DNA of 64,000 bases, taken from positions 2,968 to 66,967 of the IMG/VR virus record IMGVR_UViG_2799112225_000003, one strand, 5' to 3'. Source of the stretch: a virus (taxonomy: Duplodnaviria; Caudoviricetes). The position numbers were made by a program, and so were the translations under genes. Shown here one piece after another: positions 4,045 to 17,238 of this stretch. The notes below the pieces were generated by a model. The model did no database searches and was not told where the DNA came from. It saw only the letters and a list, made by a program, of their open reading frames with translations. Numbering within the stretch: the first letter of the stretch is position 1; every line of letters starts with the position of its first letter.

Positions 4045-7000
4045 CTAAACGCCTTCCGCGCGTGCCCGGGCCACATCCTCGCGCATCTGAACACGCATAG
4101 CTTTAGGTGCGGTATCAGCAATGCGTTGATCCTTTGACTTCTGCATCTCGCGCACCCGGCGCATCACGTCGGGGATGCGCACCAGCATCGGCTGCTCGGG
4201 GTTCTTTCGGTTCCATGCGGCCACCTGGTCGCGAGCATCCTGCACCTTTTGCTGGTCGCCCTCGAAGATGCCTTGAGCCCACATCGCACGGATTTCCTGC
4301 GCCCGCAGGTTGTAGAAGGCCTTCGCGCCCTGGTTGATGCCGTTCGCCTCCTGGATGGTGGCGACGCTGTTGGGCTGGAAGCCGATGGTCTTCAGCGTCG
4401 CCTCCAGCGTGTTCGTGTCCAGCACCTTGTAGCCCTTGGCGTCCCGGTACATGCCGGTCGCAGCCATGTCCGCGCCTTTGGCGGCGTTGCGCACCGCGGC
4501 CGGAGACATTTCCAGCAGCCCAGCACCAACGTCGCCAGTCAGCACGCTACGACCACCCGAGAGGATGCGGCTGGCGAAGTCGCCGGCCGGGCCCGCGATC
4601 TCCAACAGGTCGCGCGAGTGGCTGGTCTTCTCCAGCAACAGGCCGGTGCCCGGGATCAGGTTCCCCATCCCGAGGCGGCCCGACACATCCAGCGGCGCGC
4701 CGGGCAGGCCGCTCACGCCCTTGTCGATGAACTGCGCAATCGGCTTCGGCAGCAGGCTCTCCAGGAAATCCTGGCGGGCCTTCTTCGTCGAGAAGTTGTA
4801 GCCCAGCATCTGCGCCAGCGCGTCGACGGCATCCTCCAGGTCTTCCTCGAAGGGCAGCCCGCCGGCGCCGCCCATCAGCATCAGCATGCCCAGCGCCAAC
4901 AGCGCGGCGCGCTTGCCCTCCGGGCCGCCTTGCGTGTACATGCGGTGCAGCAGCTCGAGGTAGGCCACGCTGTAGGTCTTGAAGGTCATCAGCGTGCCGC
5001 CGATGGCTCCGCGGCCCCACTCCATCTTGTTCGCCTTGCTGTAGAGGAACTGCGTTTCCGTGATGGCCTTGCGTGCGAAGCCCGCCGGGTCTTCCATGCC
5101 CTGCGCCTTGGCCGTCCGGTAGGCGGCAACGAAGGTGACTCGGCGGTTCACCTGCTCGGCGGCGCCGAACAGCTTGCCCCACGCCAGCGAGAGGCGCGAA
5201 AGGGCGTTCTGCCCCATCGCGCGCAGCTCGCCGCCTCGTGTGCCGTCGCCCGAGCGCAGCGAGCTCGCGCCGCGCGCCTGGGCCATCAGCTGGTGCACCT
5301 CCTGCGGGCTCACGGTGCCTTCGTCCTCGGCGCGCTTGAGCGCCGCCGCGAGATCCGGCTCGTACTGGAAGCCGCGCGTGGCGATGTTCTTCGCCGCCCT
5401 GCCGATCTGCGCAGCGGCCGCGCGCGCCCCGCCGTACTGGCTCAGCCACGGCAAGGTCACGGCGACAGGCTGAGTCATGTTCACGAACGCCGACGCCACC
5501 GAGCCGCCCAGGTACTGCGCGAACAGCAGACCTCTCACGGCCTGGGCCTCCTCCTGCGGGTTCTTCACATACTCGGCCAGGCGCACTGCAGCGTCTTTCA
5601 GCTCGCCCTGCTCCTTCGGGATGGCCTGCACCGCCTCGCCGAGATCGCCCATGTGCAATCCTGCGGCCGTCTGGCGCGCGTTCGAGTAGATGAACGAGGC
5701 CAGCACCCGGCCCACGTCCTCGCTGAAGCCGGCGATGCCCTTGCGGTGGATCAGCCGGCGCATGGCACTGCGGTTGGTCTTCGTCAGCCGCAGGTATTCC
5801 TGGAATGCCTGGTCCTGCGCGCTGTCACCGGTCGAATCAAGGCCGAGGGCATTGCCGAACAGTTCCAACGTCTCGGGCGTCACGCCAGCGAAGAGCTTGA
5901 AGGCCTCCTCCGAGAGCGTGCCCTGGGTGACAGTGGCATCGCCGAACTCCTCCCGCATCTTCGTGGCCATGTTGTTTGCCTCGCGCGCCGTCTCGAAGAG
6001 GCCGAAGTACTGCCGCTCGCCGGCAGCGTCCACCACATCGACCGAGTAGCGCCCGAAGCGCGACAGCGGCGCATACCCGCGGGCCTGCAGGTCGCGCACC
6101 TTGTCGGCCCGGTCGATGATGCCGTTGGCGGTGTTCAGGATCTGCGTCGCGCGGTCAGGCTGCTCGTTGGCCAGCTGCACCAGATGATCGCGCAGCAGCA
6201 CGGCGGCTGCCTGCACGTCTGGCGCATCCATCACCATGCCACGCATGGCCTTGGCGTCGTCGCCCACGAACCGCAGCATGTCGGCGCGCGCCATCGTGTC
6301 TAGGCTCCGGTCGGTCGTCTCGCGGAACTCGTGGTAGAGAGCGATCTGGTCGTCGGAGAGTTTGAACATGGAGCGCAGCTCCGCATCCGTCCAGACGACG
6401 CCCGGCTGCAGCATGCGCGACTCGAAGCGCGTGTTGATGGCCTTCTCATAGGACTCCAGGGGCATGCCCTGCCAGGCCTTCAGCATGCGCTCGTCGATCT
6501 GCCCGTTTCGCAGCAGGCGCTGCGCCTTCTGGTCGGCCGTCAGCTCTGCCGCGGCGTCGATGAGCGACTGCACCGGCACCGGCTTGCCCTGTTCGTCACG
6601 CGCCCAGGTCAGCGTGCCCTCGAAGACCGGCTTCGCCACCGCCGCGTTGTCGGCCGCGGCCACCGGCGCTTTCTTGATGTCGCGCCACGTCTCCAGCTTC
6701 GGCAGAAGCTTGGGTGCCAATTCGGCCGCGTCGTTGGCGTAGAAGCTCACGTCGTCCACGAAGCCCTGCGCCGAATCGAACACCGCCTTGAAGGCCGGCG
6801 AGCGCTCCGCGAGGTTGTACATGGTGCCGACCGTCTTGTGCCACCACGACAGCTTGCCGGGAGCGGTGAAGGTCTTGTTGAGCTCCGCCGTGGCCTTCTT
6901 CGCGAAGTCCTGCACCGTGGACCGGCTAAACCGGATGTCCGGGTTGCCGCCGTCGAAGGCCCCGCTGTTGCCGATGGCCGACTTCACCTGGGTAGGCTCG

Positions 7001-10000
7001 AAGGCCACGATCTCTAACGAGCCATCCTCGGCCGTGAGGGTCACGCCGTCGTGCCCCATCGCGCGCAGGTTCGACGTGAACCGGTCCACCTGCGCCTGCG
7101 TCGCCCGCTTCAGCCGAGCCTTGATTTCCGGGGTGGCAACGTAGGGGTTCGTGACTGCGAAGTACAGGGGCATAACGCGCGGTCCGCCCTGACCGCGCTT
7201 CGCGCCGGCATAGTAGTTCGCGTCCGTCGCGTCGCTCGCACCGTAGACGCCGCGGCCGAGCCAGCCTACGTCTTTTCGGTTTGGGTGCTCGGTATCGAAG
7301 GCGGCGAAGTCGTCGCGCGTGCCGTGGAAAAATACGAGCGGGCGGCCTTGCGCATCAACGGGTCCGAGTCGCCCAGGTGCGCCGCCATCTCGGCCGGGCC
7401 CACCGGCGGCAGCTCCGCCAACAGCTCCTCCAGATCCTTGCGTGCCGCTTCGGGTGTCTTTGAGGCTTCCATCCTGCCCACTGTACCAGTGCCAGAAGTT
7501 CGCGACACCTTCGTCGTTCGAGGCGATGGGGGCGCCCAGGCTATTGGCCGTGGCGGGGCCAGCCTCGCCACGGCTGAATCGCAGGCCGTCGCCGGGCCCA
7601 CCGTCCGGACCGCCCTGCTCGACGAAACGGCGGGCGGGCAGGATGAAGTTGCGCACGATCTCGTCATCCGTCATACGCAGGTTGCTGAAGCCCGGCACGT
7701 GCTGGCGCAGCCATGTGCGGATAGCAGCGATCGCGCGGCGCACGAAGTGCAGCTCGGGGTGGGTCTGCGCCATCTCGGCCAAGACTTCCTCCGCCGCGGC
7801 GCGCCGGTCCAGCTTGTTGACGCCGCGCAGGCCGTATTCCTCGATCTTCGCGTCCACGTCAGCCCGACGCATCGTGCCGATCTGGTTCAGCACCTCATCC
7901 AGCCCCTTCCCGAACTGGCCGCGCAGCCCGTGATGGCCCAGTACTTCATGGAAGAGGACGCGCGCAGCGTCGTTGGCCGTAGGAAGCCGCGAAGCCATCA
8001 GGTAGGCCTTGCCGCGATAGTAGAAGCCCTCGGGGGCACCACGCGCGCCGCCGCTGCGCTGCTTGAGGTCGGCGCGCCGGGCCGCCTCGGGCACAACGGG
8101 GTCGCCCATGTCGAAAGCAACGATCACCTCGGGCCCGTTGCCCCAGCCGGCGCGGATCGCCTCGACGGTCTTGGTCACGGACGCCACCGCCTGTGCCCGC
8201 GCCTGGGGCGAATAGTTGGGCAGCAGCGCACGCATCGCCCTCGCCGCCTCGGGCGACAGCATTTCGGTCCCGTCGCGCCGGAACTGCGCGTCGTCGGCGG
8301 GGCCACCGAACTCCTCGAGCGCATCCCCGAATCCTTGCTCGGTGAGCTGCTGACGCTGCTCGGCCATGGCCTTCTGCAACGCGGGCCGCTGATTCAGCGG
8401 GATGTCCGGCCCCTTCGCCACCAGCCGGCGCTGCACGCGGCGGTGCGCCTCACGCGCTACCTCCAGCTCCTTCGCCTGAGCGAACGGCTTGCCGGCCTGC
8501 TCGCGCAACTGCACCGCCGACTGCTTCGCCTCCGCGATCTTGGCGTCCAGGTCGACGATGTGCGCCGGAAGTCGATTGATGTAGTTGCCGAAGCGGGTCA
8601 GGATGCCAGCCGCCGACGGCAGCACGTCCCTGGCCGGCCGGTAGGAGTCCAAGCCGCCCGTGGGCGAGTTGAGCTCCACGTGGTCGGGCGTTCCTTCCAG
8701 CATGAAGGTCACGCCGCGGTACTGGAATTCCTCCTGCCCACCGCTCACGAACACGCGGTCGATGCCACGCTTGACGGCCTTGATCGCCGCCTCACGGTCA
8801 GTGATCGTCTTCCCGGCGACGGTCAGGCCGGCGAAGCCATCCTTGGGCACCGGGTGGGCTTCTGCTGCGGCCTGCAGCGCGCGGAACGTGTCCAGCTCCT
8901 TCGGTCCCCAGTCTTGCGCGAAGCGCTGCTGGTCGCGCGCCTGGCGCACCATCGCCGCAGTTTCGTCAGCGTGGGAGGCCTGCAGTGACTCCAGGCGGCG
9001 CACGTCGTTGCGGAGCCGGGTCTCTTCCAGGATGAGCGGGTCGCCCGATGCGGCGGCCTTCATGTCGGCCGCGTTGGCGGCCTCGCCCTCGATGTCGTCG
9101 ATCTCGTTGAGCGTGCCGTCGTACTTGCGCAGCTGCTCGATGCCGCGTGCCTTGTGTTCCAGGATCTGCCAGCGGCGCGTGTCGTAGGTCTGCTCGGTGG
9201 CGTAGCGGTAGATTTCCACCTCGAAGCCGTCCGGGTCACGGGCATAGAGCGCGTTGCCGCGGCGGATGATGCGGCCCTCGCGCTGCTCCAGGTCGCTCGG
9301 CCGCCACGGCGCGTCGATGTGGTGCAGCCCGACGAGGCGCTCCTGCACGTTGGTGCCTGCACCCATCTTCGGAGTGGAGCCCAACAGGAAACGGATGTCG
9401 CCCCGATTCACCGCCTTGAACAGCTTGTCCTTCGCCGCGGGCGTGTTGTAGTCGTGGATGAACGCGATCTCGCGCTCGGGCACGCCGCGGGCCATCAGCT
9501 TGCCCTTGATATCGTCGTACACCGAGAACGCGGTAGCCCCCGACATGCCCGCGATGTCTGCCAGCGAGATCGATTCGGTTTCCTCGGTGTCGATCTCGTT
9601 GGCGTTGTTGTAGTCGTCGATCTCGTCTTGCTGGAGGTCGCCGATGCGGTCCCGCGCGTCGATCCAGCGCTGACGGCGGCTGTCATCGTTCAGAGCCTGG
9701 GCCGCCCAATCGGTCGCAATGCCCTTGGCCGGCAGACCTGCGTGCACGCGCAGGCCGGTGGCCGCGTCGTAGATGGTGAAGGCCTTGGCGTCTTTGCCGC
9801 CCTCCTTCACCACGAAGAACGGCAGGTCTTCGTGGCCGCGCACCGTGTGCATCGTGCCCTTCTTGTGCACCAGCGCGCCTTCGTCGCGCACGTAGACGCG
9901 CCGCTCCTTGCTGCCGAAGCCGCTACGCGCCGACAGCGGCACGGAGAGGTCGCAGAAGACCAGTTGCGTTCCACGGTCGGCGGTCCACTTCTGGTAGGTG

Positions 10001-13000
10001 CCCAGCATGCGCTCGACGGCGAGGTTGATCTTCGAGCCCGCGAAGTCGGGGGCCGAGGGGTCGATCAGGCGGAAGTCCAGGCCCGCCTTGTTGGCCTGGC
10101 CAGTCAACGACAGCGCGTTGACCTTCCCCTTCGTCTCCTTCGTCAGGCGCTTCAGGTCCGCGAACTGCCCGAGGATCGACTTCGGGTCCACCTTGATCTT
10201 GGGCGACAGCGCCGCTTCGACCACCAGCAGCTTGGCGTCCTCTTCGGTCTTGGCGGACCCGATGAGTTGCCGAATCTCCTTCTCGTCGGGCTGCGGCACG
10301 CGGGTTTCTGCGCGCCAGCTGTTACCGTCCTCGGACTTCTCTATCACCGCGCGCTCGCCCGCGGCCGGGTTGAACCCGAACTGCACTCGCCCGCCCTGGA
10401 TGTCCAGCTGGGGCACGCCCATGAAGTTCGCCACCTCCGGCGAGCGCTTCGCCACCACGTTCACCGGCCGGCCGCCGGCCACCTGCGGCACCGGGAACGT
10501 ACGGCCCCGGGCCTCCTCCTGCGCCTTCAGGTCGTCCAGCGTCACCGTGTCGGCAAAGGTCTGGTACATGCCCATCAGTGCAGGCAGGTTCTTGAACTTG
10601 GCGAACCGCGAGGCCTGGCGGTATCCCGTGCCCGACGGCGAAACCTCGTACAGCGACTCCACGCTGCCGAATTGCTTGGCCCAGGCGTCGAAGACGTGCA
10701 GGCCCTGCGCCTTGAGCGTCGGGTACTGCAGGAACCGCTGCATGTTGAACATTTCCACCAGGCTGTTGGAAACCGGCGTGCCGGTCGCCCCCATCAGCGG
10801 GGCCTTGTCGCCCAGCGCGTCGAAGAGGTACTGGGCCTTCACGAAGAGGTCGAACGCCTTGTCCGATCCGCCCGGGTTGCCCATGCCCGGCACGCGCTCC
10901 ATGGTGGAGTTGTAGAAGAGGTTCTTGAACTCGTGCAGCTCGTCGATGGCGAAGGCATCGACGCCGAGCTCATCGAACGTCACCACCTTGTCGCGCTCCC
11001 CGAGGGCCTGCACGCGCTGCTTCATGCGCGCTTCCAGGCGGGCCTTGATGCTCTCCATGTCGCGCACGATGTTGCGGTCGCCGCGGGCGCGCTTCATCTC
11101 GCCGATGCTGTCGGCCAGCTCGGTAATCTGCTCTTCGAGCACCGCCTTTTCCGTCTCGGCCGGCAGAGCAATCCTCTTCAGGCTGGAGTGGCCGATGATG
11201 ACGGCATCCCAGTCGCCGGTGACGATCTTGGAGAAGAACTTCTCCCGGTTGCCCTTGGTGAAGTCGTCCGGCGTGGCCGCCAGCACGTTGGCCGCCGGGT
11301 ACAGGCGGGAGAACTCGCTGCGCCACTGCAGGGTCAGATGGTTGGGCACCGTTACGATGGGCTTCCGAGCGATGCCGAGCCGACGCATTTCCATGATGGC
11401 AGCCACCACCTCGAAGGTCTTGCCCGCGCCAACGACGTGATCCAGCAGGATCTGGCGCTGCTGCAGGGCCCGCCAGACCGCATCCTTCTGGTGAGGCAGC
11501 AGCTCCATCGCGGGCGACATGCCCGGGAAGGTCATGTGCGAGCCGTCGAAGCGACGCACCACGATGCGGTTCATCTTGTCGTTGTAGATGCCTGCAACGC
11601 GGTCGGCGCGCTCGGGATCGCTCCACAGCCAGCGCTGCCACTCGGCCTTCATGGCGGTCTGCTTCTCGCGCGCCGCCTCTGTCTCTTTCTCGAGCACCAC
11701 CGTGCGGGTACCGCCATTGGGGTCGCGGATGGTGTCCGTGACCACCACGCCCTGCCCCGCCATCGTGCGCATGAAGATGTTCTGCGCCGTCATCCGGCTG
11801 ATGCCCCACTTCGCGGTGTTGAGGGCCGGGTTGGGCTGAGAGGTGTAGTCCACCAGCCACTGCCCGGTCGCTCGCAGGTAGGTGACGCGCGCATCCGCGC
11901 CAGTCACTTCCTTGGCGAACTGCTGGAACAGCTCCTGGGGAATGAACGCCGCACCCATGGCCGCGTGGATTTCGCTCGGCCGCTTGTCGGCCGGGATGAC
12001 CTTGCGCAAGGCTTCCACGTTGCGGCGCAGTGCCGGGTCATCGCGCGCCGCAGCCTCTGCTTCGGCCAACTTCGTCTTCACGTCGCCGGACAGGTATTCG
12101 TCGGCCATCACGAGCCCGTTCACCGGGTCGGCATACACCACGTCGCCCAGCTCCGACACGATCTGGGCCGGCGGCTTGTCGTACAGCGTCGCCATGTAGT
12201 CGGCGTCCAGCCGCCCCTTGTAGTTCAGGCTGGCCAGCAGCGCGTCCTTGGCGTTGCTCACCTTGATGTTGTCCGCTGGCGGGAACATCACGCGGCGCGC
12301 GAAGATGTCGGCCTTGACCGCCTTGGGCGCGCGCGGCTCGATGTCCTCGCGCTCGGCCACCGCCTTGCTCACACCGCGGTCGTAGTCGAACTCCAGTGCC
12401 AGCACAAGGGCAGATTCTGTGTCGTCCAGAAAGATGCGGCGGTTGGTGGGATCGTTCAGGTAGCCGTACTTGCTCTGGAACCCGTCGTAGAGGCGATTCA
12501 GTTCGCGGCGATGCTGTTCGATCTGCCCGTCGGTCGAGTCGGGGGAGCGCTCCAGGCGCATCTGTGCGCGCAGCGCATCGCGCAACCCGACCATTCCCTT
12601 CATGCGCTCTGCCGCTTTCACATTGGGCGGCGTCCACGGCTCGGCCCTCCGGTTGCCGAGCGAATCAGGGCCGCGCATCAACACACGGCCGCTGTCGTCC
12701 ACGTAGAACGAACCGACCTTCACGCCGTCGGGCACCACCACGTCGGCGGCCTCCCGCTCGTGCGTTCGCTCGACTGGCTGGTAGACGTCTTCCGGCAGCG
12801 CATCGGCCCAGGTCTTCAGCTGCTGCGCCAGGTCGCCGGAAGGCTCCACCGTGTATTCGCCTGCACGGTACATCGAGCCCGCGGCCGTCGGCGTGCCGAG
12901 TACCGCCTCAGGGTTGCTCAGGAAGTAGCTGCTGACGTTGTGCTGCGTGGCCTCGCCCGTCTTCGGGTTGGCGAGGGTCTGCTGACCCGCCTTCACCCAT

Positions 13001-16000
13001 GCTGCGTCGCCCAAGCCATTCGCGCGCTCGGATTCCGTCTTCTTCTGGAACACAACGATGTCGGTCACCACCTCGGTGCCGGCGTTCGTCTTGAACGTGG
13101 TGTTCGGCAAGCGGACGGCCGCCACCAGGTTGGCGCGGTCGGCGATCCACTGGCGGGTCGCCTCGTTCTTGGCGTCGAGGAAGTTGTGCGACACCACCAT
13201 CGCCAGCAAGCCACCGGGGCGCAGCTTGTCGATGCTCTTGGCGAAGAAGTAGTTGTGGATCGAAAAGCCCGAGTACGGCGAGCGGTCGTCATCCACGATG
13301 GGCTCGGAGCCGAACGGCGGATTGCCCACGGCCAGGTCGAAGTACTCGGCCGGCGCCTGGAAGTCCTGGAAGCCAGTGGCCTGCGCCACCTTGGCGCTGG
13401 GATACAGCGCGGCGGCGATCTGGCTGGTCAGCGGATCCAGTTCCACGCCGTGCAACTGCGAGCGCTTCCGCATGCTCGCGGGCATCAGCCCGAAGAAGTT
13501 GCCGGTACCTACAGCCGGTTCGAGCACCCGGCCCGCGGAGAACCCCATGCGCTCGAGCGCCTGGTAGATGCCATCGACCACCACCGGCGACGTGTAGTGC
13601 GCATTCAGCACCGATGCGCGGGCGGCCTTGTATTCGGCATCGGTCAACAGCTCGCGCAGCTCGGCGAACTCCTTGGACCACTGCTTGTTCTGGGGGTCGA
13701 AGACACCCTTCAGCGCTCCCCAGCCGACGTAGCGCGCGATCTGCTTGCGCTCCTCGGGCGTGGCCTTGCGGCTCTCCCCGGCCAGCGCCTTGAGGATTCG
13801 GATGGCCGCAATGTTGTCGCGGTACTTCTTGGTGAGCCCGCCCTTGCCGATGTCCTCGGCATCTAGGGTGTGGTCGCTCGGCTGATCGAGCTCGGGCTTC
13901 GGCGACGCCTCGGCGGTCGCCGGGTCGGCTACAGCGTGGGCGGGCTGTCGCTCAGGCCGTACATCTCCGAGATCTCGTGGCGCGCGAGGTGCCGGTTCCC
14001 CGGATCGCTGTACGCCCTCCGTTCGGCCTCCTCCTGTTCCTTCAGAGCCGGCAGGAACTCGTTCGCCTCGATCAGCGCCTTCACCCGCTTCGGCCACCCG
14101 AGCATCCACCGGTTGGCGATCTCGGTCGCCAGCGCCGGCATCGCGCGCATCGCCTCCTTGATCGGCGGCGGGTAGTCGTTCGGTCTGTACAGCTCCTGCA
14201 TTTCGTCCATTGTCGTCTCCTGTGGAATGGGCATCAACGGGCTGCGGCGCCGATGCAGAGGGCTTGGGTTCGTTCAGCCGCGTTACCGGCCCGCGGCGAA
14301 GGTCCACGGCTGAGGGTTGCGTCGAATGTGTGCGCTGCTGCTCGCCTGGGATGTCTTCGAATTGCCCCTGGGCAACTTGGCGGACGGCCCGCACGTCCAC
14401 GCTCCACAAGCCGCCGTTGACGCCGGGCCGGTACGCAACCACACGGTCGAAGCCGCCGTAGCTCTTCACCACGTTGCCCGGCTGGAAGTACGAGGCGCGC
14501 GCCCGCTCTTCTGCTTCATCCTTCTTGGCGAGGACGCCTCGGCGCTGCTTGGGCTCTTGCGCGGGCGACGGGATCGAAGGGGCCGCGGGCTCATCCTTGC
14601 GGCGCATCGTGGCCAGCGGCTTCTTGAACCGGCCGTCCGCGAGGCCGGCCTTGAACTCGTCGACGGACATAGCCGTCACCGGGCCAACCTTCCAGCCCGC
14701 GTCGTAACTGCCCTTGTACGCAGCTACAGCCTCCGCTTCGCTGTGGAAACCGAAGAGGGCCTTCGCCTCGTCATAGGTGCCATCCCCGTTGATCTGGTCC
14801 ACCACGTAGACCGTCGGGGCGGTCGCCGCGGCGGGGCCGACGAACACATCCACGTGGTCGCCGTCGGCAGCCTCGGAGCCCTTCACGTAGCCGTAGTGCG
14901 CGGCCATCGTGTTGCTCCATTCGGTGCCGTCCGGCGACGTGCCGCGGCGCGTGCTGCCCTGCGGGTTCTCCACGCTGATGCGCAGGCCCTGCACCTCATC
15001 GCCGGACAAGTGGCCCATCTTGTAGTTGCCGGCCTCCTTCTGGGCCTGGCTGGGCTCGGGCAGGTCGTTTTGCGGGCTGGTCGCTGCTTCGTTCGCCGCG
15101 GCGTCGACCGGCGCTGCCGCTTCCGGCCGACGAGCGGCGCTGCTTTGCTCGCGCTCGATCTGCGCGATGTCGTTGTCGATGTCGCGCCGCAGAGGCGTGC
15201 CAGGCACAGCCTCGGCGCGCCGGCGGCGCAGGTCCGCCAGTTGATCGGCCGACGCAGCGGCTTGCGGCTGCGCAGCTTGTGCCGGCTGGGCGTCCTTGGC
15301 CTGCACAATGAAGCGCCGGTTGTCCGGCACCACCTCGTGCGTCTCCGTGAGGCCTGACGTTTCCACGAAGGCCTGCGCCTTGTCGCGGGACAGGAACCAT
15401 GCACTCCCTTCTTCCACCCGGCGAACCGCCTTCTCGCGCTTCGCGTTCGGGACTGCCGGTGCTGCCGGCGAGGGTGTCAGCGCTGCTGCGGCTGTGACTG
15501 GCGCTGCTGTAGTCGCTTCTGCTCCTGCCGGCGCTTGTTGCGCGACTGCTTGCTGGGCTTGATCGGCTTGAGTGCCAAGGGTTTCTCCTTTGGGTTGCGG
15601 TGCGGATTCGGGCGCGGCGCGGCGGTCGCGTGCTTGCGAAATGCCCTCCTGCACGCTGTTGGGCGCGGTCGGCGCCGCGGGCGCGAGGGCAGCAAGCTCG
15701 GCCCGGGCGCTGTCGCGCTCAGCGATCAAGCGCTGATCCCAGCCGTTCGACGCGGCCTGTTGGCGCACGAACTCCAGCCGCGCGCGCAGTTCGGCCTCCC
15801 GGTCCTGCGCCTGTTCGGAGATCTCTCCGGTTTCAGCATTGACGTTCGCCACAGGCGCTGCGGCGGGTGCCGGCGAAGCCGCCGCCGGTTTCGCGTCCTT
15901 GCCATCGGCAGCCTCGGTTTGAGCGGCGAGCTGGGCCGCCGCATTCATCACGTCGTGTGCGCCACCATCCACCGCCAGCGCGGCGGCGGTGGACAACGGA

Positions 16001-17238
16001 CCTGCAGCGGGGTCCAGCCCCATCGCTTCGGAGGGACGCACGGGCTTCGCTTCATCAGTGAGAGCGAGGTTGCCCGTGCTGAACTCGCGCGCGTCCGGTG
16101 CTGCCGCCTCGAAGTCCACGCCATCGGTAGGCGCCGTGGGCATCACATCGAGCGGCGGCCGGCTGGCCGGGTCGCGCGGATCAAAGGTGCGCTGCACGCT
16201 GGCCAAGCCGCCCGCAACCGCGGGAATCTCGCTGACCGCCGCGGGTGCCTGGCCCTGGTCCACTGGCAACAGCGAGAGCTGCTCGCCGGGCGTGCGCCCT
16301 GCACTGCCGAGCGCCGCCTGATTCGGGGCGTGCTGACCAGTGGCGCCATGCAGCAGCGCAGCCCCGCCGCCCATGGCACCGCCCGCGAGCAACCCGGCGG
16401 CGGCGGCCTTGCCGACACCTTCACCGACGGGCTTGTCCAGCGCGAGGTTCTGCAGCGCCTGCTCGGACATCGACTGCGGCAGTTCTTCGAGCACGCCCTC
16501 GGACAGGATGCCGGCGCCAACCTGGCGCGCGAGCGAACGCTGTGAGGCGGGCCCGGCGCCGTGGATGGCTCCCTGCGCCAGCATCGTGTCGGCATCGCCG
16601 ATACCGAGGCGTTGCGCCAGGCGGCCACCGAGTGCGCCAAAGCCAGCAGTAGCGGCGCCGGTCGCGGCGGACAGAGCCGCCTGCTTCGGGGTGAGCAACC
16701 CGTCTTGCGTCTCTTGGCGGATCTGCTCGGCCTGCGAGCCCGCCCCCAGCACGCCTTCACCGATGGCGCCAGCGATGGCCGGCGCCACCTTGGGCGCCAA
16801 CTTGAGCAAGCCGCGCGCCACGCCCGCGCCGCCGAGCATCTGCGGGATCGACTCGCCCACGCTGGTCGCGATGGTGCTGGGGTTCTCCAGCATGGTCTTG
16901 GCCGTGTCGACGAAGCCGTCGGCCGCCTGCACCTTGCGGTTGGCGCCCTTCTGCGCATCGGAGTACTGGTCGTCGAGGAACTTCTGCGCGTCCTCGAAGC
17001 GAACTCCTGCCTGCTCCAGAGCTTTGCCAGCGTGGCCGCCCGTCACGATGTCGGCCAAGCCGACGACGCTCTGCGGCAGGCCAACTGCGCCCTTCAGCGC
17101 AGTGACCCCGACATCCTTTGCGGTGCCGAGCACGGTGCGCTTCGCATCGGGCGGATCGAGCTCACCCGAAAACGGGGTGAGGTTGTGGGGTGGGGTATCG
17201 AGTTGCCCGTCGAAGGGCTTGAGGGTTTCGCCAGCCAT
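4045..17238 (-). CDS. Giant polyvalent/DarB-like virion-ejected protein (4397 aa): PPase-like, N6-adenine MTase, SNF2 helicase, zincin-like peptidase, ART-like and PLxRFG domains
   Basis: GNYKMGH...HYGYVKG...DGDHVDVFVGP; EPAVGTGNF and NPPF; VGAGKT, DELH, ATGTP, QREGRIIR; HEVLGHHG; FFHGT...GRGVY...EIVAFEPTQVKSAIGN; YAPLSRFGRY. Confidence 0.92.
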   Translation of the reverse strand: MAGETLKPFDGQLDTPPHNLTPFSGELDPPDAKRTVLGTAKDVGVTALKGAVGLPQSVVGLADIVTGGHAGKALEQAGVRFEDAQKFLDDQYSDAQKGANRKVQAADGFVDTAKTMLENPSTIATSVGESIPQMLGGAGVARGLLKLAPKVAPAIAGAIGEGVLGAGSQAEQIRQETQDGLLTPKQAALSAATGAATAGFGALGGRLAQRLGIGDADTMLAQGAIHGAGPASQRSLARQVGAGILSEGVLEELPQSMSEQALQNLALDKPVGEGVGKAAAAGLLAGGAMGGGAALLHGATGQHAPNQAALGSAGRTPGEQLSLLPVDQGQAPAAVSEIPAVAGGLASVQRTFDPRDPASRPPLDVMPTAPTDGVDFEAAAPDAREFSTGNLALTDEAKPVRPSEAMGLDPAAGPLSTAAALAVDGGAHDVMNAAAQLAAQTEAADGKDAKPAAASPAPAAAPVANVNAETGEISEQAQDREAELRARLEFVRQQAASNGWDQRLIAERDSARAELAALAPAAPTAPNSVQEGISQARDRRAAPESAPQPKGETLGTQADQAQQAVAQQAPAGAEATTAAPVTAAAALTPSPAAPAVPNAKREKAVRRVEEGSAWFLSRDKAQAFVETSGLTETHEVVPDNRRFIVQAKDAQPAQAAQPQAAASADQLADLRRRRAEAVPGTPLRRDIDNDIAQIEREQSSAARRPEAAAPVDAAANEAATSPQNDLPEPSQAQKEAGNYKMGHLSGDEVQGLRISVENPQGSTRRGTSPDGTEWSNTMAAHYGYVKGSEAADGDHVDVFVGPAAATAPTVYVVDQINGDGTYDEAKALFGFHSEAEAVAAYKGSYDAGWKVGPVTAMSVDEFKAGLADGRFKKPLATMRRKDEPAAPSIPSPAQEPKQRRGVLAKKDEAEERARASYFQPGNVVKSYGGFDRVVAYRPGVNGGLWSVDVRAVRQVAQGQFEDIPGEQQRTHSTQPSAVDLRRGPVTRLNEPKPSASAPQPVDAHSTGDDNGRNAGAVQTERLPAADQGGDARDAGAGDRDRQPVDARVAEAGEGADRGERVPAGSEGTGGGRTEGVQRSGEPAPRAPRDLGDVRPERQPAHAVADPATAEASPKPELDQPSDHTLDAEDIGKGGLTKKYRDNIAAIRILKALAGESRKATPEERKQIARYVGWGALKGVFDPQNKQWSKEFAELRELLTDAEYKAARASVLNAHYTSPVVVDGIYQALERMGFSAGRVLEPAVGTGNFFGLMPASMRKRSQLHGVELDPLTSQIAAALYPSAKVAQATGFQDFQAPAEYFDLAVGNPPFGSEPIVDDDRSPYSGFSIHNYFFAKSIDKLRPGGLLAMVVSHNFLDAKNEATRQWIADRANLVAAVRLPNTTFKTNAGTEVVTDIVVFQKKTESERANGLGDAAWVKAGQQTLANPKTGEATQHNVSSYFLSNPEAVLGTPTAAGSMYRAGEYTVEPSGDLAQQLKTWADALPEDVYQPVERTHEREAADVVVPDGVKVGSFYVDDSGRVLMRGPDSLGNRRAEPWTPPNVKAAERMKGMVGLRDALRAQMRLERSPDSTDGQIEQHRRELNRLYDGFQSKYGYLNDPTNRRIFLDDTESALVLALEFDYDRGVSKAVAEREDIEPRAPKAVKADIFARRVMFPPADNIKVSNAKDALLASLNYKGRLDADYMATLYDKPPAQIVSELGDVVYADPVNGLVMADEYLSGDVKTKLAEAEAAARDDPALRRNVEALRKVIPADKRPSEIHAAMGAAFIPQELFQQFAKEVTGADARVTYLRATGQWLVDYTSQPNPALNTAKWGISRMTAQNIFMRTMAGQGVVVTDTIRDPNGGTRTVVLEKETEAAREKQTAMKAEWQRWLWSDPERADRVAGIYNDKMNRIVVRRFDGSHMTFPGMSPAMELLPHQKDAVWRALQQRQILLDHVVGAGKTFEVVAAIMEMRRLGIARKPIVTVPNHLTLQWRSEFSRLYPAANVLAATPDDFTKGNREKFFSKIVTGDWDAVIIGHSSLKRIALPAETEKAVLEEQITELADSIGEMKRARGDRNIVRDMESIKARLEARMKQRVQALGERDKVVTFDELGVDAFAIDELHEFKNLFYNSTMERVPGMGNPGGSDKAFDLFVKAQYLFDALGDKAPLMGATGTPVSNSLVEMFNMQRFLQYPTLKAQGLHVFDAWAKQFGSVESLYEVSPSGTGYRQASRFAKFKNLPALMGMYQTFADTVTLDDLKAQEEARGRTFPVPQVAGGRPVNVVAKRSPEVANFMGVPQLDIQGGRVQFGFNPAAGERAVIEKSEDGNSWRAETRVPQPDEKEIRQLIGSAKTEEDAKLLVVEAALSPKIKVDPKSILGQFADLKRLTKETKGKVNALSLTGQANKAGLDFRLIDPSAPDFAGSKINLAVERMLGTYQKWTADRGTQLVFCDLSVPLSARSGFGSKERRVYVRDEGALVHKKGTMHTVRGHEDLPFFVVKEGGKDAKAFTIYDAATGLRVHAGLPAKGIATDWAAQALNDDSRRQRWIDARDRIGDLQQDEIDDYNNANEIDTEETESISLADIAGMSGATAFSVYDDIKGKLMARGVPEREIAFIHDYNTPAAKDKLFKAVNRGDIRFLLGSTPKMGAGTNVQERLVGLHHIDAPWRPSDLEQREGRIIRRGNALYARDPDGFEVEIYRYATEQTYDTRRWQILEHKARGIEQLRKYDGTLNEIDDIEGEAANAADMKAAASGDPLILEETRLRNDVRRLESLQASHADETAAMVRQARDQQRFAQDWGPKELDTFRALQAAAEAHPVPKDGFAGLTVAGKTITDREAAIKAVKRGIDRVFVSGGQEEFQYRGVTFMLEGTPDHVELNSPTGGLDSYRPARDVLPSAAGILTRFGNYINRLPAHIVDLDAKIAEAKQSAVQLREQAGKPFAQAKELEVAREAHRRVQRRLVAKGPDIPLNQRPALQKAMAEQRQQLTEQGFGDALEEFGGPADDAQFRRDGTEMLSPEAARAMRALLPNYSPQARAQAVASVTKTVEAIRAGWGNGPEVIVAFDMGDPVVPEAARRADLKQRSGGARGAPEGFYYRGKAYLMASRLPTANDAARVLFHEVLGHHGLRGQFGKGLDEVLNQIGTMRRADVDAKIEEYGLRGVNKLDRRAAAEEVLAEMAQTHPELHFVRRAIAAIRTWLRQHVPGFSNLRMTDDEIVRNFILPARRFVEQGGPDGGPGDGLRFSRGEAGPATANSLGAPIASNDEGVANFWHWYSGQDGSLKDTRSGTQGSGGAVGGAAAGGPGRDGGAPGRLGPVDAQGRPLVFFHGTRDDFAAFDTEHPNRKDVGWLGRGVYGASDATDANYYAGAKRGQGGPRVMPLYFAVTNPYVATPEIKARLKRATQAQVDRFTSNLRAMGHDGVTLTAEDGSLEIVAFEPTQVKSAIGNSGAFDGGNPDIRFSRSTVQDFAKKATAELNKTFTAPGKLSWWHKTVGTMYNLAERSPAFKAVFDSAQGFVDDVSFYANDAAELAPKLLPKLETWRDIKKAPVAAADNAAVAKPVFEGTLTWARDEQGKPVPVQSLIDAAAELTADQKAQRLLRNGQIDERMLKAWQGMPLESYEKAINTRFESRMLQPGVVWTDAELRSMFKLSDDQIALYHEFRETTDRSLDTMARADMLRFVGDDAKAMRGMVMDAPDVQAAAVLLRDHLVQLANEQPDRATQILNTANGIIDRADKVRDLQARGYAPLSRFGRYSVDVVDAAGERQYFGLFETAREANNMATKMREEFGDATVTQGTLSEEAFKLFAGVTPETLELFGNALGLDSTGDSAQDQAFQEYLRLTKTNRSAMRRLIHRKGIAGFSEDVGRVLASFIYSNARQTAAGLHMGDLGEAVQAIPKEQGELKDAAVRLAEYVKNPQEEAQAVRGLLFAQYLGGSVASAFVNMTQPVAVTLPWLSQYGGARAAAAQIGRAAKNIATRGFQYEPDLAAALKRAEDEGTVSPQEVHQLMAQARGASSLRSGDGTRGGELRAMGQNALSRLSLAWGKLFGAAEQVNRRVTFVAAYRTAKAQGMEDPAGFARKAITETQFLYSKANKMEWGRGAIGGTLMTFKTYSVAYLELLHRMYTQGGPEGKRAALLALGMLMLMGGAGGLPFEEDLEDAVDALAQMLGYNFSTKKARQDFLESLLPKPIAQFIDKGVSGLPGAPLDVSGRLGMGNLIPGTGLLLEKTSHSRDLLEIAGPAGDFASRILSGGRSVLTGDVGAGLLEMSPAAVRNAAKGADMAATGMYRDAKGYKVLDTNTLEATLKTIGFQPNSVATIQEANGINQGAKAFYNLRAQEIRAMWAQGIFEGDQQKVQDARDQVAAWNRKNPEQPMLVRIPDVMRRVREMQKSKDQRIADTAPKAMRVQMREDVARARAEGV
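7266..7472 (-). CDS. Candidate nested gene (68 aa) in +1 frame of giant gene
   Basis: MEASKTPEAARKDLEELLAELPPVGPAEMAAHLGDSDPLMRKAARSYF looks helical/HEAT-like while the main frame is a Gly-rich linker; RBS weak. Confidence 0.4.
   Translation of the reverse strand: MEASKTPEAARKDLEELLAELPPVGPAEMAAHLGDSDPLMRKAARSYFSTARATTSPPSIPSTQTEKT
13929..14210 (-). CDS. Nested gene (93 aa) in +1 frame of giant gene
   Basis: AGGAG 7 nt before ATG; protein-like sequence (IANRWMLGWPKRVKALI...HLARHEISEMYGL) while the main frame is low-complexity G/R/D/A. Confidence 0.75.
   Translation of the reverse strand: MDEMQELYRPNDYPPPIKEAMRAMPALATEIANRWMLGWPKRVKALIEANEFLPALKEQEEAERRAYSDPGNRHLARHEISEMYGLSDSPPTL
15477..15578 (-). 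CDS. Candidate nested basic micro-protein (33 aa) in +1 frame of giant gene
   Basis: AAAGGAGA then TTG start; MALKPIKPSKQSRNKRRQEQKRLQQRQSQPQQR. Confidence 0.45.
   Translation of the reverse strand: MALKPIKPSKQSRNKRRQEQKRLQQRQSQPQQR

Follow-up and report, generated by a model that had tools for sequence, protein, structure and literature searches.

A small gene very probably translated from a second frame within the giant DarB-like gene of a provirus

Complete small genes lying out of frame inside larger ones are known from phage lambda, in which Rz1 occupies the +1 frame of Rz, and from Bacillus subtilis, in which comS, a competence regulator of narrow lineage, lies out of frame within srfA, the giant multidomain gene of a chromosomal non-ribosomal peptide synthetase. 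DarB of phage P1, a virion-borne N6-methylase/SNF2 helicase and in this respect like the giant protein described here, protects injected DNA from type I restriction and needs small proteins encoded nearby for its placement in the head, according to two papers (PMC9024508, PMC12810830). The accessory proteins of P1 DarB are Ulx, DdrA, DdrB, DarA and Hdf; the 17 kDa Ulx is listed as aiding DarB localisation (PMC9024508), and the Dar proteins are packaged in order (PMC12810830). DarB-like giants with the same kind of domain string as the giant protein described here stand at the end of the virion module of Bcep22-like phages (Iyer et al. 2017; JC1 gp69), and the available text of the JC1 paper, in which no nested gene in their DarB-like genes is mentioned, reports that these phages yielded no homologue of any P1 accessory protein (PMC9144972). 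Here we describe a giant gene of this kind and a gene of 93 codons, which we call B, lying inside it in another frame. Both are found in a 64,000-nucleotide stretch of DNA, referred to below as the window, which comprises positions 2,968 to 66,967 of the 66,967-base provirus record IMGVR_UViG_2799112225_000003 (Duplodnaviria; Caudoviricetes).

An initial annotation of the window had proposed a nested gene for a 93-amino-acid protein at 13929-14210, ahead of a methylase-helicase, and our analysis confirmed both the position of this open reading frame (ORF) and its peptide, which starts MDEMQELYRPNDYPPP. The features on which the following argument depends are:

13929..14210, minus strand: nested gene B (93 sense codons and a TAG stop), read in frame +1 relative to the giant ORF
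14217..14222, minus strand: Shine-Dalgarno (SD)-like CAGGAG, 6 bases ahead of the B ATG
14274..14276, minus strand: upstream stop TGA in the B frame, 21 codons 5' of the B ATG
4045..17238, minus strand: giant ORF of 4,397 amino acids, encoding the DarB-like polyvalent protein (from the ORF list and Pfam domains)
13930..14211, minus strand: giant-frame spacer over B, residues about 1010-1103, the same bases as B
12139..13929, minus strand: N6-adenine methylase module, start; conserved part from about residue 1124, DHTLDAEDIGKGGL

On the minus strand the ATG of B occupies 14210-14208 and its TAG 13931-13929, and the offset from the giant ORF (17238-14210 = 3028 = 3x1009+1) places it in the +1 frame. 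Its 282 bases lie just 5' of the methylase domain, wholly within a larger ORF of the same strand, which makes B an embedded gene of the Rz1-in-Rz type. Like Rz1 in lambda and in the Bcep22-like phages, B is a complete small gene with its own start inside a larger same-strand gene of a late operon, read in a shifted frame. Unlike Rz and Rz1, whose products form one lysis machine and whose frames are both functional sequence, B overlaps a stretch of its host frame that is only low-complexity spacer, and its host gene is 13 kb long. It differs from comS in that it belongs to a widespread mobile-element family. The giant protein has the domain order of DarB-like polyvalent proteins, an N6-adenine methylase followed by an SNF2-type helicase, with effector domains in addition. 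Because the genes for terminase, portal and major head protein lie upstream of it on the same strand of the record, the giant gene is the last of the late (virion) operon, an arrangement also given for the DarB-like genes of Bcep22-like phages in the JC1 paper (PMC9144972).

The start region of B carries the signals expected of a separately translated gene. The CAGGAG reported by the initial annotation is present, with a spacer of 6 bases to the ATG rather than the 7 given there. An ATG together with a purine-rich SD-like stretch (GGAG/GAGG/AGGA type) was found in 27 of 29 nested loci; in the remaining pair B has no ATG at its start and translation begins at V, pointing to a GTG start. In relatives of the window the upstream stop in the B frame lies closer than in the window itself, as near as 2-6 codons 5' of the ATG (in the six nested loci L052, L075, L022, L012, L048 and L077), leaving little room to enter the B frame by frameshifting. 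Neither promoter-like nor terminator-like sites were found near B. We concluded that internal initiation of B on the long late mRNA is the simplest reading of these sequence features, given its own conserved SD and ATG, its closed frame and the lack of a slippery site in nested loci.

Long shadow ORFs are common in the window, which is 66% GC, and the length of B is consequently no evidence by itself. The codon signature of the region is more telling. Over 14210-13950 the GC content at third codon positions (GC3) was 0.90-1.00 in the B frame versus 0.38-0.47 in the giant frame, and on both flanks of B the giant-frame GC3 was 0.8-0.97; a frame switch in GC3 was flagged in 11 of 436 windows along the giant ORF, and nine of these 11 were the B region. 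When the window was compared with four close relatives (L002, L003, L009 and L024), the differences inside B were distributed 23/8/72 over B codon positions 1/2/3, with 72 of 103 at third positions, whereas in the same relatives 330-1769 bases downstream the distribution over these positions was 90/512/138, the peak there being the third position of the giant frame. Among 23 nested loci the mean amino-acid identity encoded by the same bases was 0.44 in the B frame versus 0.29 in the giant frame, and the B-frame identity was the higher one in 252 of 253 locus pairs. The suggestion of the initial annotation that selection acts on the nested frame is thus strongly supported. Its reading of the giant frame over B, GDDNGRNAGAVQTERLPAADQGGDARDAG, was also correct. 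This peptide consists to 90% of G/A/D/E/R/P/S/Q/T/N/K and to 9% of hydrophobic residues, and its only conserved stretch is that forced by the NRWMLGWP of B. No amino-acid constraint was seen on the giant frame over B beyond staying open; we read the peptide as a low-complexity spacer, disordered as judged from its composition only, and constrained only to stay open. Selection maintains both frames, that of B as a protein sequence and that of the giant gene in being kept open.

To follow the overlap in relatives, we used loci with a B homologue from viruses (22) and from genomes (55, mostly of Betaproteobacteria, the closest being Variovorax paradoxus at 87% identity), of which 73 were usable. 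They were of the following kinds:

31 loci: B deep inside a giant open frame; 0 stops in the overlapping frame
8 loci: B near the start of an ORF of more than 2000 codons; 0 stops in the overlapping frame
11 loci: overlapping frame open yet short or broken; 0 stops
23 loci: B free-standing; 1-7 stops in the overlapping frame

B was nested alike in 39 of the 73 loci (31 deep and 8 near the start). Synonymous resampling of B with the codon usage of each locus gave the chance of an open overlapping frame for 27 loci, and in all 27 the frame is in fact open. This chance was 0/2000 in L022 and L048, 0.001 in L045 and L052, and 0.008-0.46 elsewhere; in relatives of 37-48% GC the frame was open at a chance of <=0.002. 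In the window the giant frame contains no stop 5' of B and no ATG, GTG or TTG from the B stop to the conserved start of the methylase, and so is read through B. In each of the 31 deep-nested loci one frame is common to the parts upstream and downstream of B. The giant frame continues into the methylase module 3' of B in 28/28 other nested loci compared (with a partial match in L026, of 162 residues, and in L067, of 395 residues), and the length differences 3' of the B stop are all in frame. In the eight near-start loci the giant ORF begins 5' of B with an SD of its own and a conserved N-terminal domain. These comparisons, made at the level of sequence, showed that the giant gene must be read straight through the bases of B and that its frame is kept open there by selection.

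Short motifs recur in the giant frame close to B. Giant ORFs that start just upstream of B open with MQFD(L/F/M)F or FQLDLF (L048 5622-, L066 5583-, L067 5601-, L045 5820-), a KPQLDL(L)F motif lies 3' of B in L046 and L075, and the matching place in the window, at about 13880-13900, holds only a degenerate KPELDQ. Such MQFD/QLDLF-type motifs resemble the QL[SD]LF beta-clamp-binding motif. A separate observation concerns 14240-14300 of the window, just 5' of the SD of B, where the giant-frame sequence is unrelated to that of L002 and L003 despite 96-99% identity in B; B and the methylase module are conserved in this comparison. The unrelated flank beside the conserved B and methylase places a recombination joint at the 5' boundary of B, in keeping with movement of B and the methylase-helicase as one cassette.

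We propose that the 282 bases are read in two frames of the same strand: the giant frame would yield a low-complexity spacer linking the upstream domains to the methylase-helicase, and B would be translated from its own ribosome-binding site and ATG, through initiation within the long late mRNA. Two-frame coding of 13929-14210 with separate translation of B is, on the evidence above, very probable. Two considerations detract from it: the chance of an open giant frame in the window was 0.16, which is not significant alone, and the B sequences of the 73 loci number 63 once duplicates are removed, some contigs being represented by both a viral and a genomic locus, so that the counts overstate independence. 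The 0.16 would also suit an arrangement of three separate genes (upstream, B and methylase-helicase), with the 4,397-codon frame open only because stops are rare at high GC; the abundance of shadow ORFs in a window of 66% GC speaks for this as well. Against it, there is no stop in the upstream part, nor does the downstream part offer an ATG, GTG or TTG ahead of the conserved methylase, both parts are in the same frame in every deep-nested locus, the frame is open in the relatives of 37-48% GC in which this is hardly expected by chance, and free-standing copies of B do carry stops in that frame. We regard three separate genes as highly improbable. Still less credit is due to an assembly or sequencing error (two compensating indels) or to B being a decaying relic. 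The record is a provirus of unknown sequencing quality, and in L010 and L025, which are the same contig, the giant frame, open for more than 1300 codons upstream, breaks off some 147 codons past B, either because this copy is broken or because the assembly is wrong there. However, the two frames stand in the same relation in the cultured Pseudomonas phage 8P and in 39 nested loci, which come from many samples, stops flank B in its own frame, the differences within B are concentrated at its third positions, the predicted fold is a confident one, and an in-frame fused form is absent from the 94 representatives of the family described below.

A different way to account for the two frames is that programmed frameshifting joins B to the giant protein, either by a +1 shift into B, giving the upstream domains plus B and then a stop, or by a -1 shift out of B, giving a B-methylase-helicase fusion from the B ATG. 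The two frames do differ by one base, an SD-like element lies inside a translated ORF, as it does in prfB, in which an SD stimulates a +1 shift, and between B and the methylase module there is no start codon from which the latter could be translated separately. However, a slippery heptamer of the form X_XXY_YYZ was found in B in none of the 29 nested loci, and in six of these the B frame is closed within a few codons of the ATG. If the shift were a -1 exit, an open giant frame along the full length of B would not be needed, yet all 39 nested loci have one. None of the 94 representatives is a long protein with B in frame, although gene callers would miss frameshift products anyway. We consider frameshifting very unlikely.

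Protein searches placed B in a family of small proteins. A HMMER scan of 1.84 billion representatives returned 94 matches at E<=1e-3, all of 52-264 amino acids, and B was an in-frame domain of a large protein in none of these 94 cluster representatives. A second search returned 105 proteins of 59-156 amino acids, all unnamed or 'hypothetical', in which no Pfam domain was found. Together with the 22 viral and 55 genomic loci, these are the homologues for which the initial annotation had suggested a search. The family motif in the alignment is IANRWxLGWP ... Q..E.E ... HLA.HEI ... PP. An AlphaFold2 model made from the family alignment has five helices, with a predicted local distance difference test score (pLDDT) of 95.1 and a predicted template modelling score (pTM) of 0.84. 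Foldseek searches with this model against PDB and BFVD gave nothing at E<=0.001 (best E 5.5 and 2.7, respectively; all TM-scores <0.4), searches of Pfam, PHROGs, NCBIfam and PADLOC with B gave no family, and the ESM Atlas returned unnamed clusters only. Profile matches of B to PDB entries were to designed helical repeats only, which we took as a composition effect and set aside. By these comparisons B is shown to be a real, independently evolving gene for a 93-residue protein that is predicted to be folded.

The place occupied by B in the window is filled in other giant genes as well. With the methylase module as query we obtained 80 DarB-like viral loci at 39-98% identity, and all 80 have a +1-frame ORF in the slot before the methylase, either of the B type or of a second type. 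A B-type match at E<=0.01 was found in 42 of the 80 loci (44 matches at E<=1e-3); without exception these matches use the +1 frame and lie directly before the methylase match. The other 38 all have a +1-frame ORF of 76-177 codons, stop to stop, in the same place, and a motif M..W..QA..HW... is common to 31 loci, namely 29 of these 38 and two with weak B-type matches. For ten second-type loci of 37-59% GC the chance of an open giant frame was 0-0.044, and in all ten it is open. An iterated profile search from B gave 83 matches in 79 of the 80 loci, all in the +1 frame, with a best E of 0.35 in the reversed-sequence control, and it joined the B type and the second type from round 2 onward (reversed control E 0.44); when the two were aligned directly with hhalign the match was weak (E 0.006, probability 6%), though collinear over 59 columns. 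Four loci (L110, L111, L113 and L160) have two B-type matches each in the +1 frame of the same giant gene, the second copy at E 3e-18 to 3e-14; on their sequences these pairs are tandem nested paralogues.

The initial annotation had tentatively compared B with TnpV-like small proteins associated with mobile-element methylase-helicases. TnpV of Tn4451-type transposons is, like B, a small helical mobile-element protein; a part in excision has been no more than postulated for it, from its resemblance to lambda Xis (PMC3158075). It is unlike B in being a free-standing gene in these transposons. As an analogy of place the comparison held, since TnpV-matching ORFs fill the same +1 slot before the methylase in other DarB-like phage genes, for example in L162. 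The Pfam family TnpV (PF14198) was matched by five of ten second-type ORFs scanned; the ORF of L162 scored 34.4 bits, above the cut-off of 27, and the other four scored 17.5-19.0 bits, below it. Aligned with the bona fide TnpV ORF of L162 by hhalign, the second type gave a probability of 68% (E 5e-5, 23 columns). Membership of B in the family was not borne out: none of 39 B family members matched TnpV at E<=1 or reached the gathering score of 27 bits, the hhalign probability between B and the TnpV ORF of L162 was 0.7%, and the TnpV model run against the six frames of the record gave nothing at E<=10. On sequence grounds B would be at most a remote relative of TnpV, and the family's own threshold does not admit it as a member. 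As TnpV was above cut-off in none of 301 Pseudomonadota genomes, the TnpV link rests on the nested ORFs of viral loci.

What B does can be approached from its position. Its constant slot before the methylase in all sampled viral DarB-like genes points to a role connected with that enzyme, and the need of P1 DarB for small accessory proteins leads to the idea that B, by analogy, may be an accessory factor of the methylase-helicase, acting in folding, capsid loading or control; we hold this to be possible, at somewhat less than an even chance. The remaining probability is shared between two alternatives, an autonomous small protein with a DNA-binding or regulatory function, and a role in anti-defence. 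A bolder form of the idea would be that most polyvalent-type phage DarB-like genes hide an obligatory partner of the TnpV superfamily, the missing accessory factor that folds, loads or switches on the enzyme, with two-frame coding locking the pair together through domain shuffling; this is rather unlikely.

Several observations count against a dedicated partnership of B with the enzyme. No large ORF was found within 6 kb downstream of the 23 free-standing copies of B, which lie beside diverse genes (relaxase with LPD7, integrase, TrfA, type I R subunit, RHS), and on the B tree nested and free forms are interspersed, forcing at least 5 changes. The net charge of family members ranges from -12 to +2.7, so that no simple DNA-mimic or chaperone signature is conserved. 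Unlike the giant gene of the window, P1 darB begins directly at the methylase region and has no nested ORF. P1 Ulx, considered as a homologue of B, gave an hhalign probability of 0.7% and was rejected; ulx lies downstream of darB. Two kinds of neighbourhood among the free copies are recorded here for themselves: in L061 (6269-6787) and L038 (6147-6815) a free B is followed by a gene for a DnaQ/RNase T-like 3'-5' exonuclease, with weak Pfam matches, and in L061 and L069 the gene immediately before B encodes a MobA/VirD2 relaxase with an LPD7 domain.

Codon usage is the usual argument for the age of overlapping frames. Because the B frame carries the codon signature of the genome, and because free-standing genes of the B and TnpV families exist, we infer that the B frame is the older one; the leader of the giant gene would then have been extended over B.

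Existing annotation shows how such a gene is passed over. In Pseudomonas phage 8P a B of 76.7% identity lies unannotated in the +1 frame inside 8P_023, which is annotated as 'structural protein'; no literature on phage 8P was found. In 21 records from 12 phages (VvAW1, PBC5, Atu_ph08, Pavtok, Stean, PEp14, LASTA, SJM3, SopranoGao, POI1126, Itty13 and Mwe-JY07) one giant feature covers the second type and is named 'DarB-like antirestriction', 'DNA methylase' or similar. In none of the 22 cultured-phage records examined was the nested gene annotated. A plasmid of Cupriavidus metallidurans has B annotated as a free-standing hypothetical gene, with an N-6 DNA methylase after it. In the literature, with supplements outside the scope, we found no description of a nested gene within DarB-like or polyvalent genes, and the terms 'overlap' and 'frameshift' do not occur in Iyer et al. 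2017 (PMC5512222).

In some phages a fifth of the genome is taken by a DarB-like giant, and annotated genes of this kind are present in many research phages. If the small protein were needed by the giant enzyme, it would be an overlooked part of a major phage counter-defence, and this could explain the absence of homologues of the P1 accessory proteins from Bcep22-like phages that the JC1 paper reports (PMC9144972). The locus would also be a clear natural example of overprinting, in which a folded gene of greater age lies under a spacer constrained only to stay open, and for which the free-standing copies of B serve as an internal control. One stretch of DNA would make two proteins, the smaller of which goes unnoticed when related phages are annotated in the routine way. 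In its nested form the B family escapes gene callers and protein databases, which describe the spacer as ordinary sequence.

The further domains recognised in the giant protein are:

14647..15048, minus strand: InPase domain, residues 731-864, E 3.4e-46, upstream of B in the giant frame
13114-13383, minus strand: Eco57I-type methylase Pfam match, residues 1286-1375
9256..11508, minus strand: SNF2-type helicase, from SNF2/ResIII and Helicase_C matches
11128-11508, minus strand: SNF2/ResIII match, residues 1911-2037
9256-9477, minus strand: Helicase_C match, residues 2588-2661
6955..7356, minus strand: ART-PolyVal (ADP-ribosyltransferase of polyvalent proteins), residues 3295-3428, E 3.9e-24

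In the C-terminal part of the giant protein, about 970 residues encoded at 4045-6950, no Pfam domain was found; this region has hydrophobic Gly-rich stretches, e.g. LLALGMLMLMGGAGGLPF, reminiscent of ejection or tape-measure-like proteins. The sole other place in the giant ORF where GC3 switched to the +1 frame, in two of the 436 windows, is at about 7458-7428 on the minus strand. It falls in the region 7266-7667 (minus strand), within the Gly-rich linker just 5' of the ART-PolyVal domain, and the +1 frame there contains a 133-codon ORF with a helical-looking stretch, MEASKTPEAARKDLEELLAEL, which could be either a second short nested gene or an effect of GGN-codon composition.

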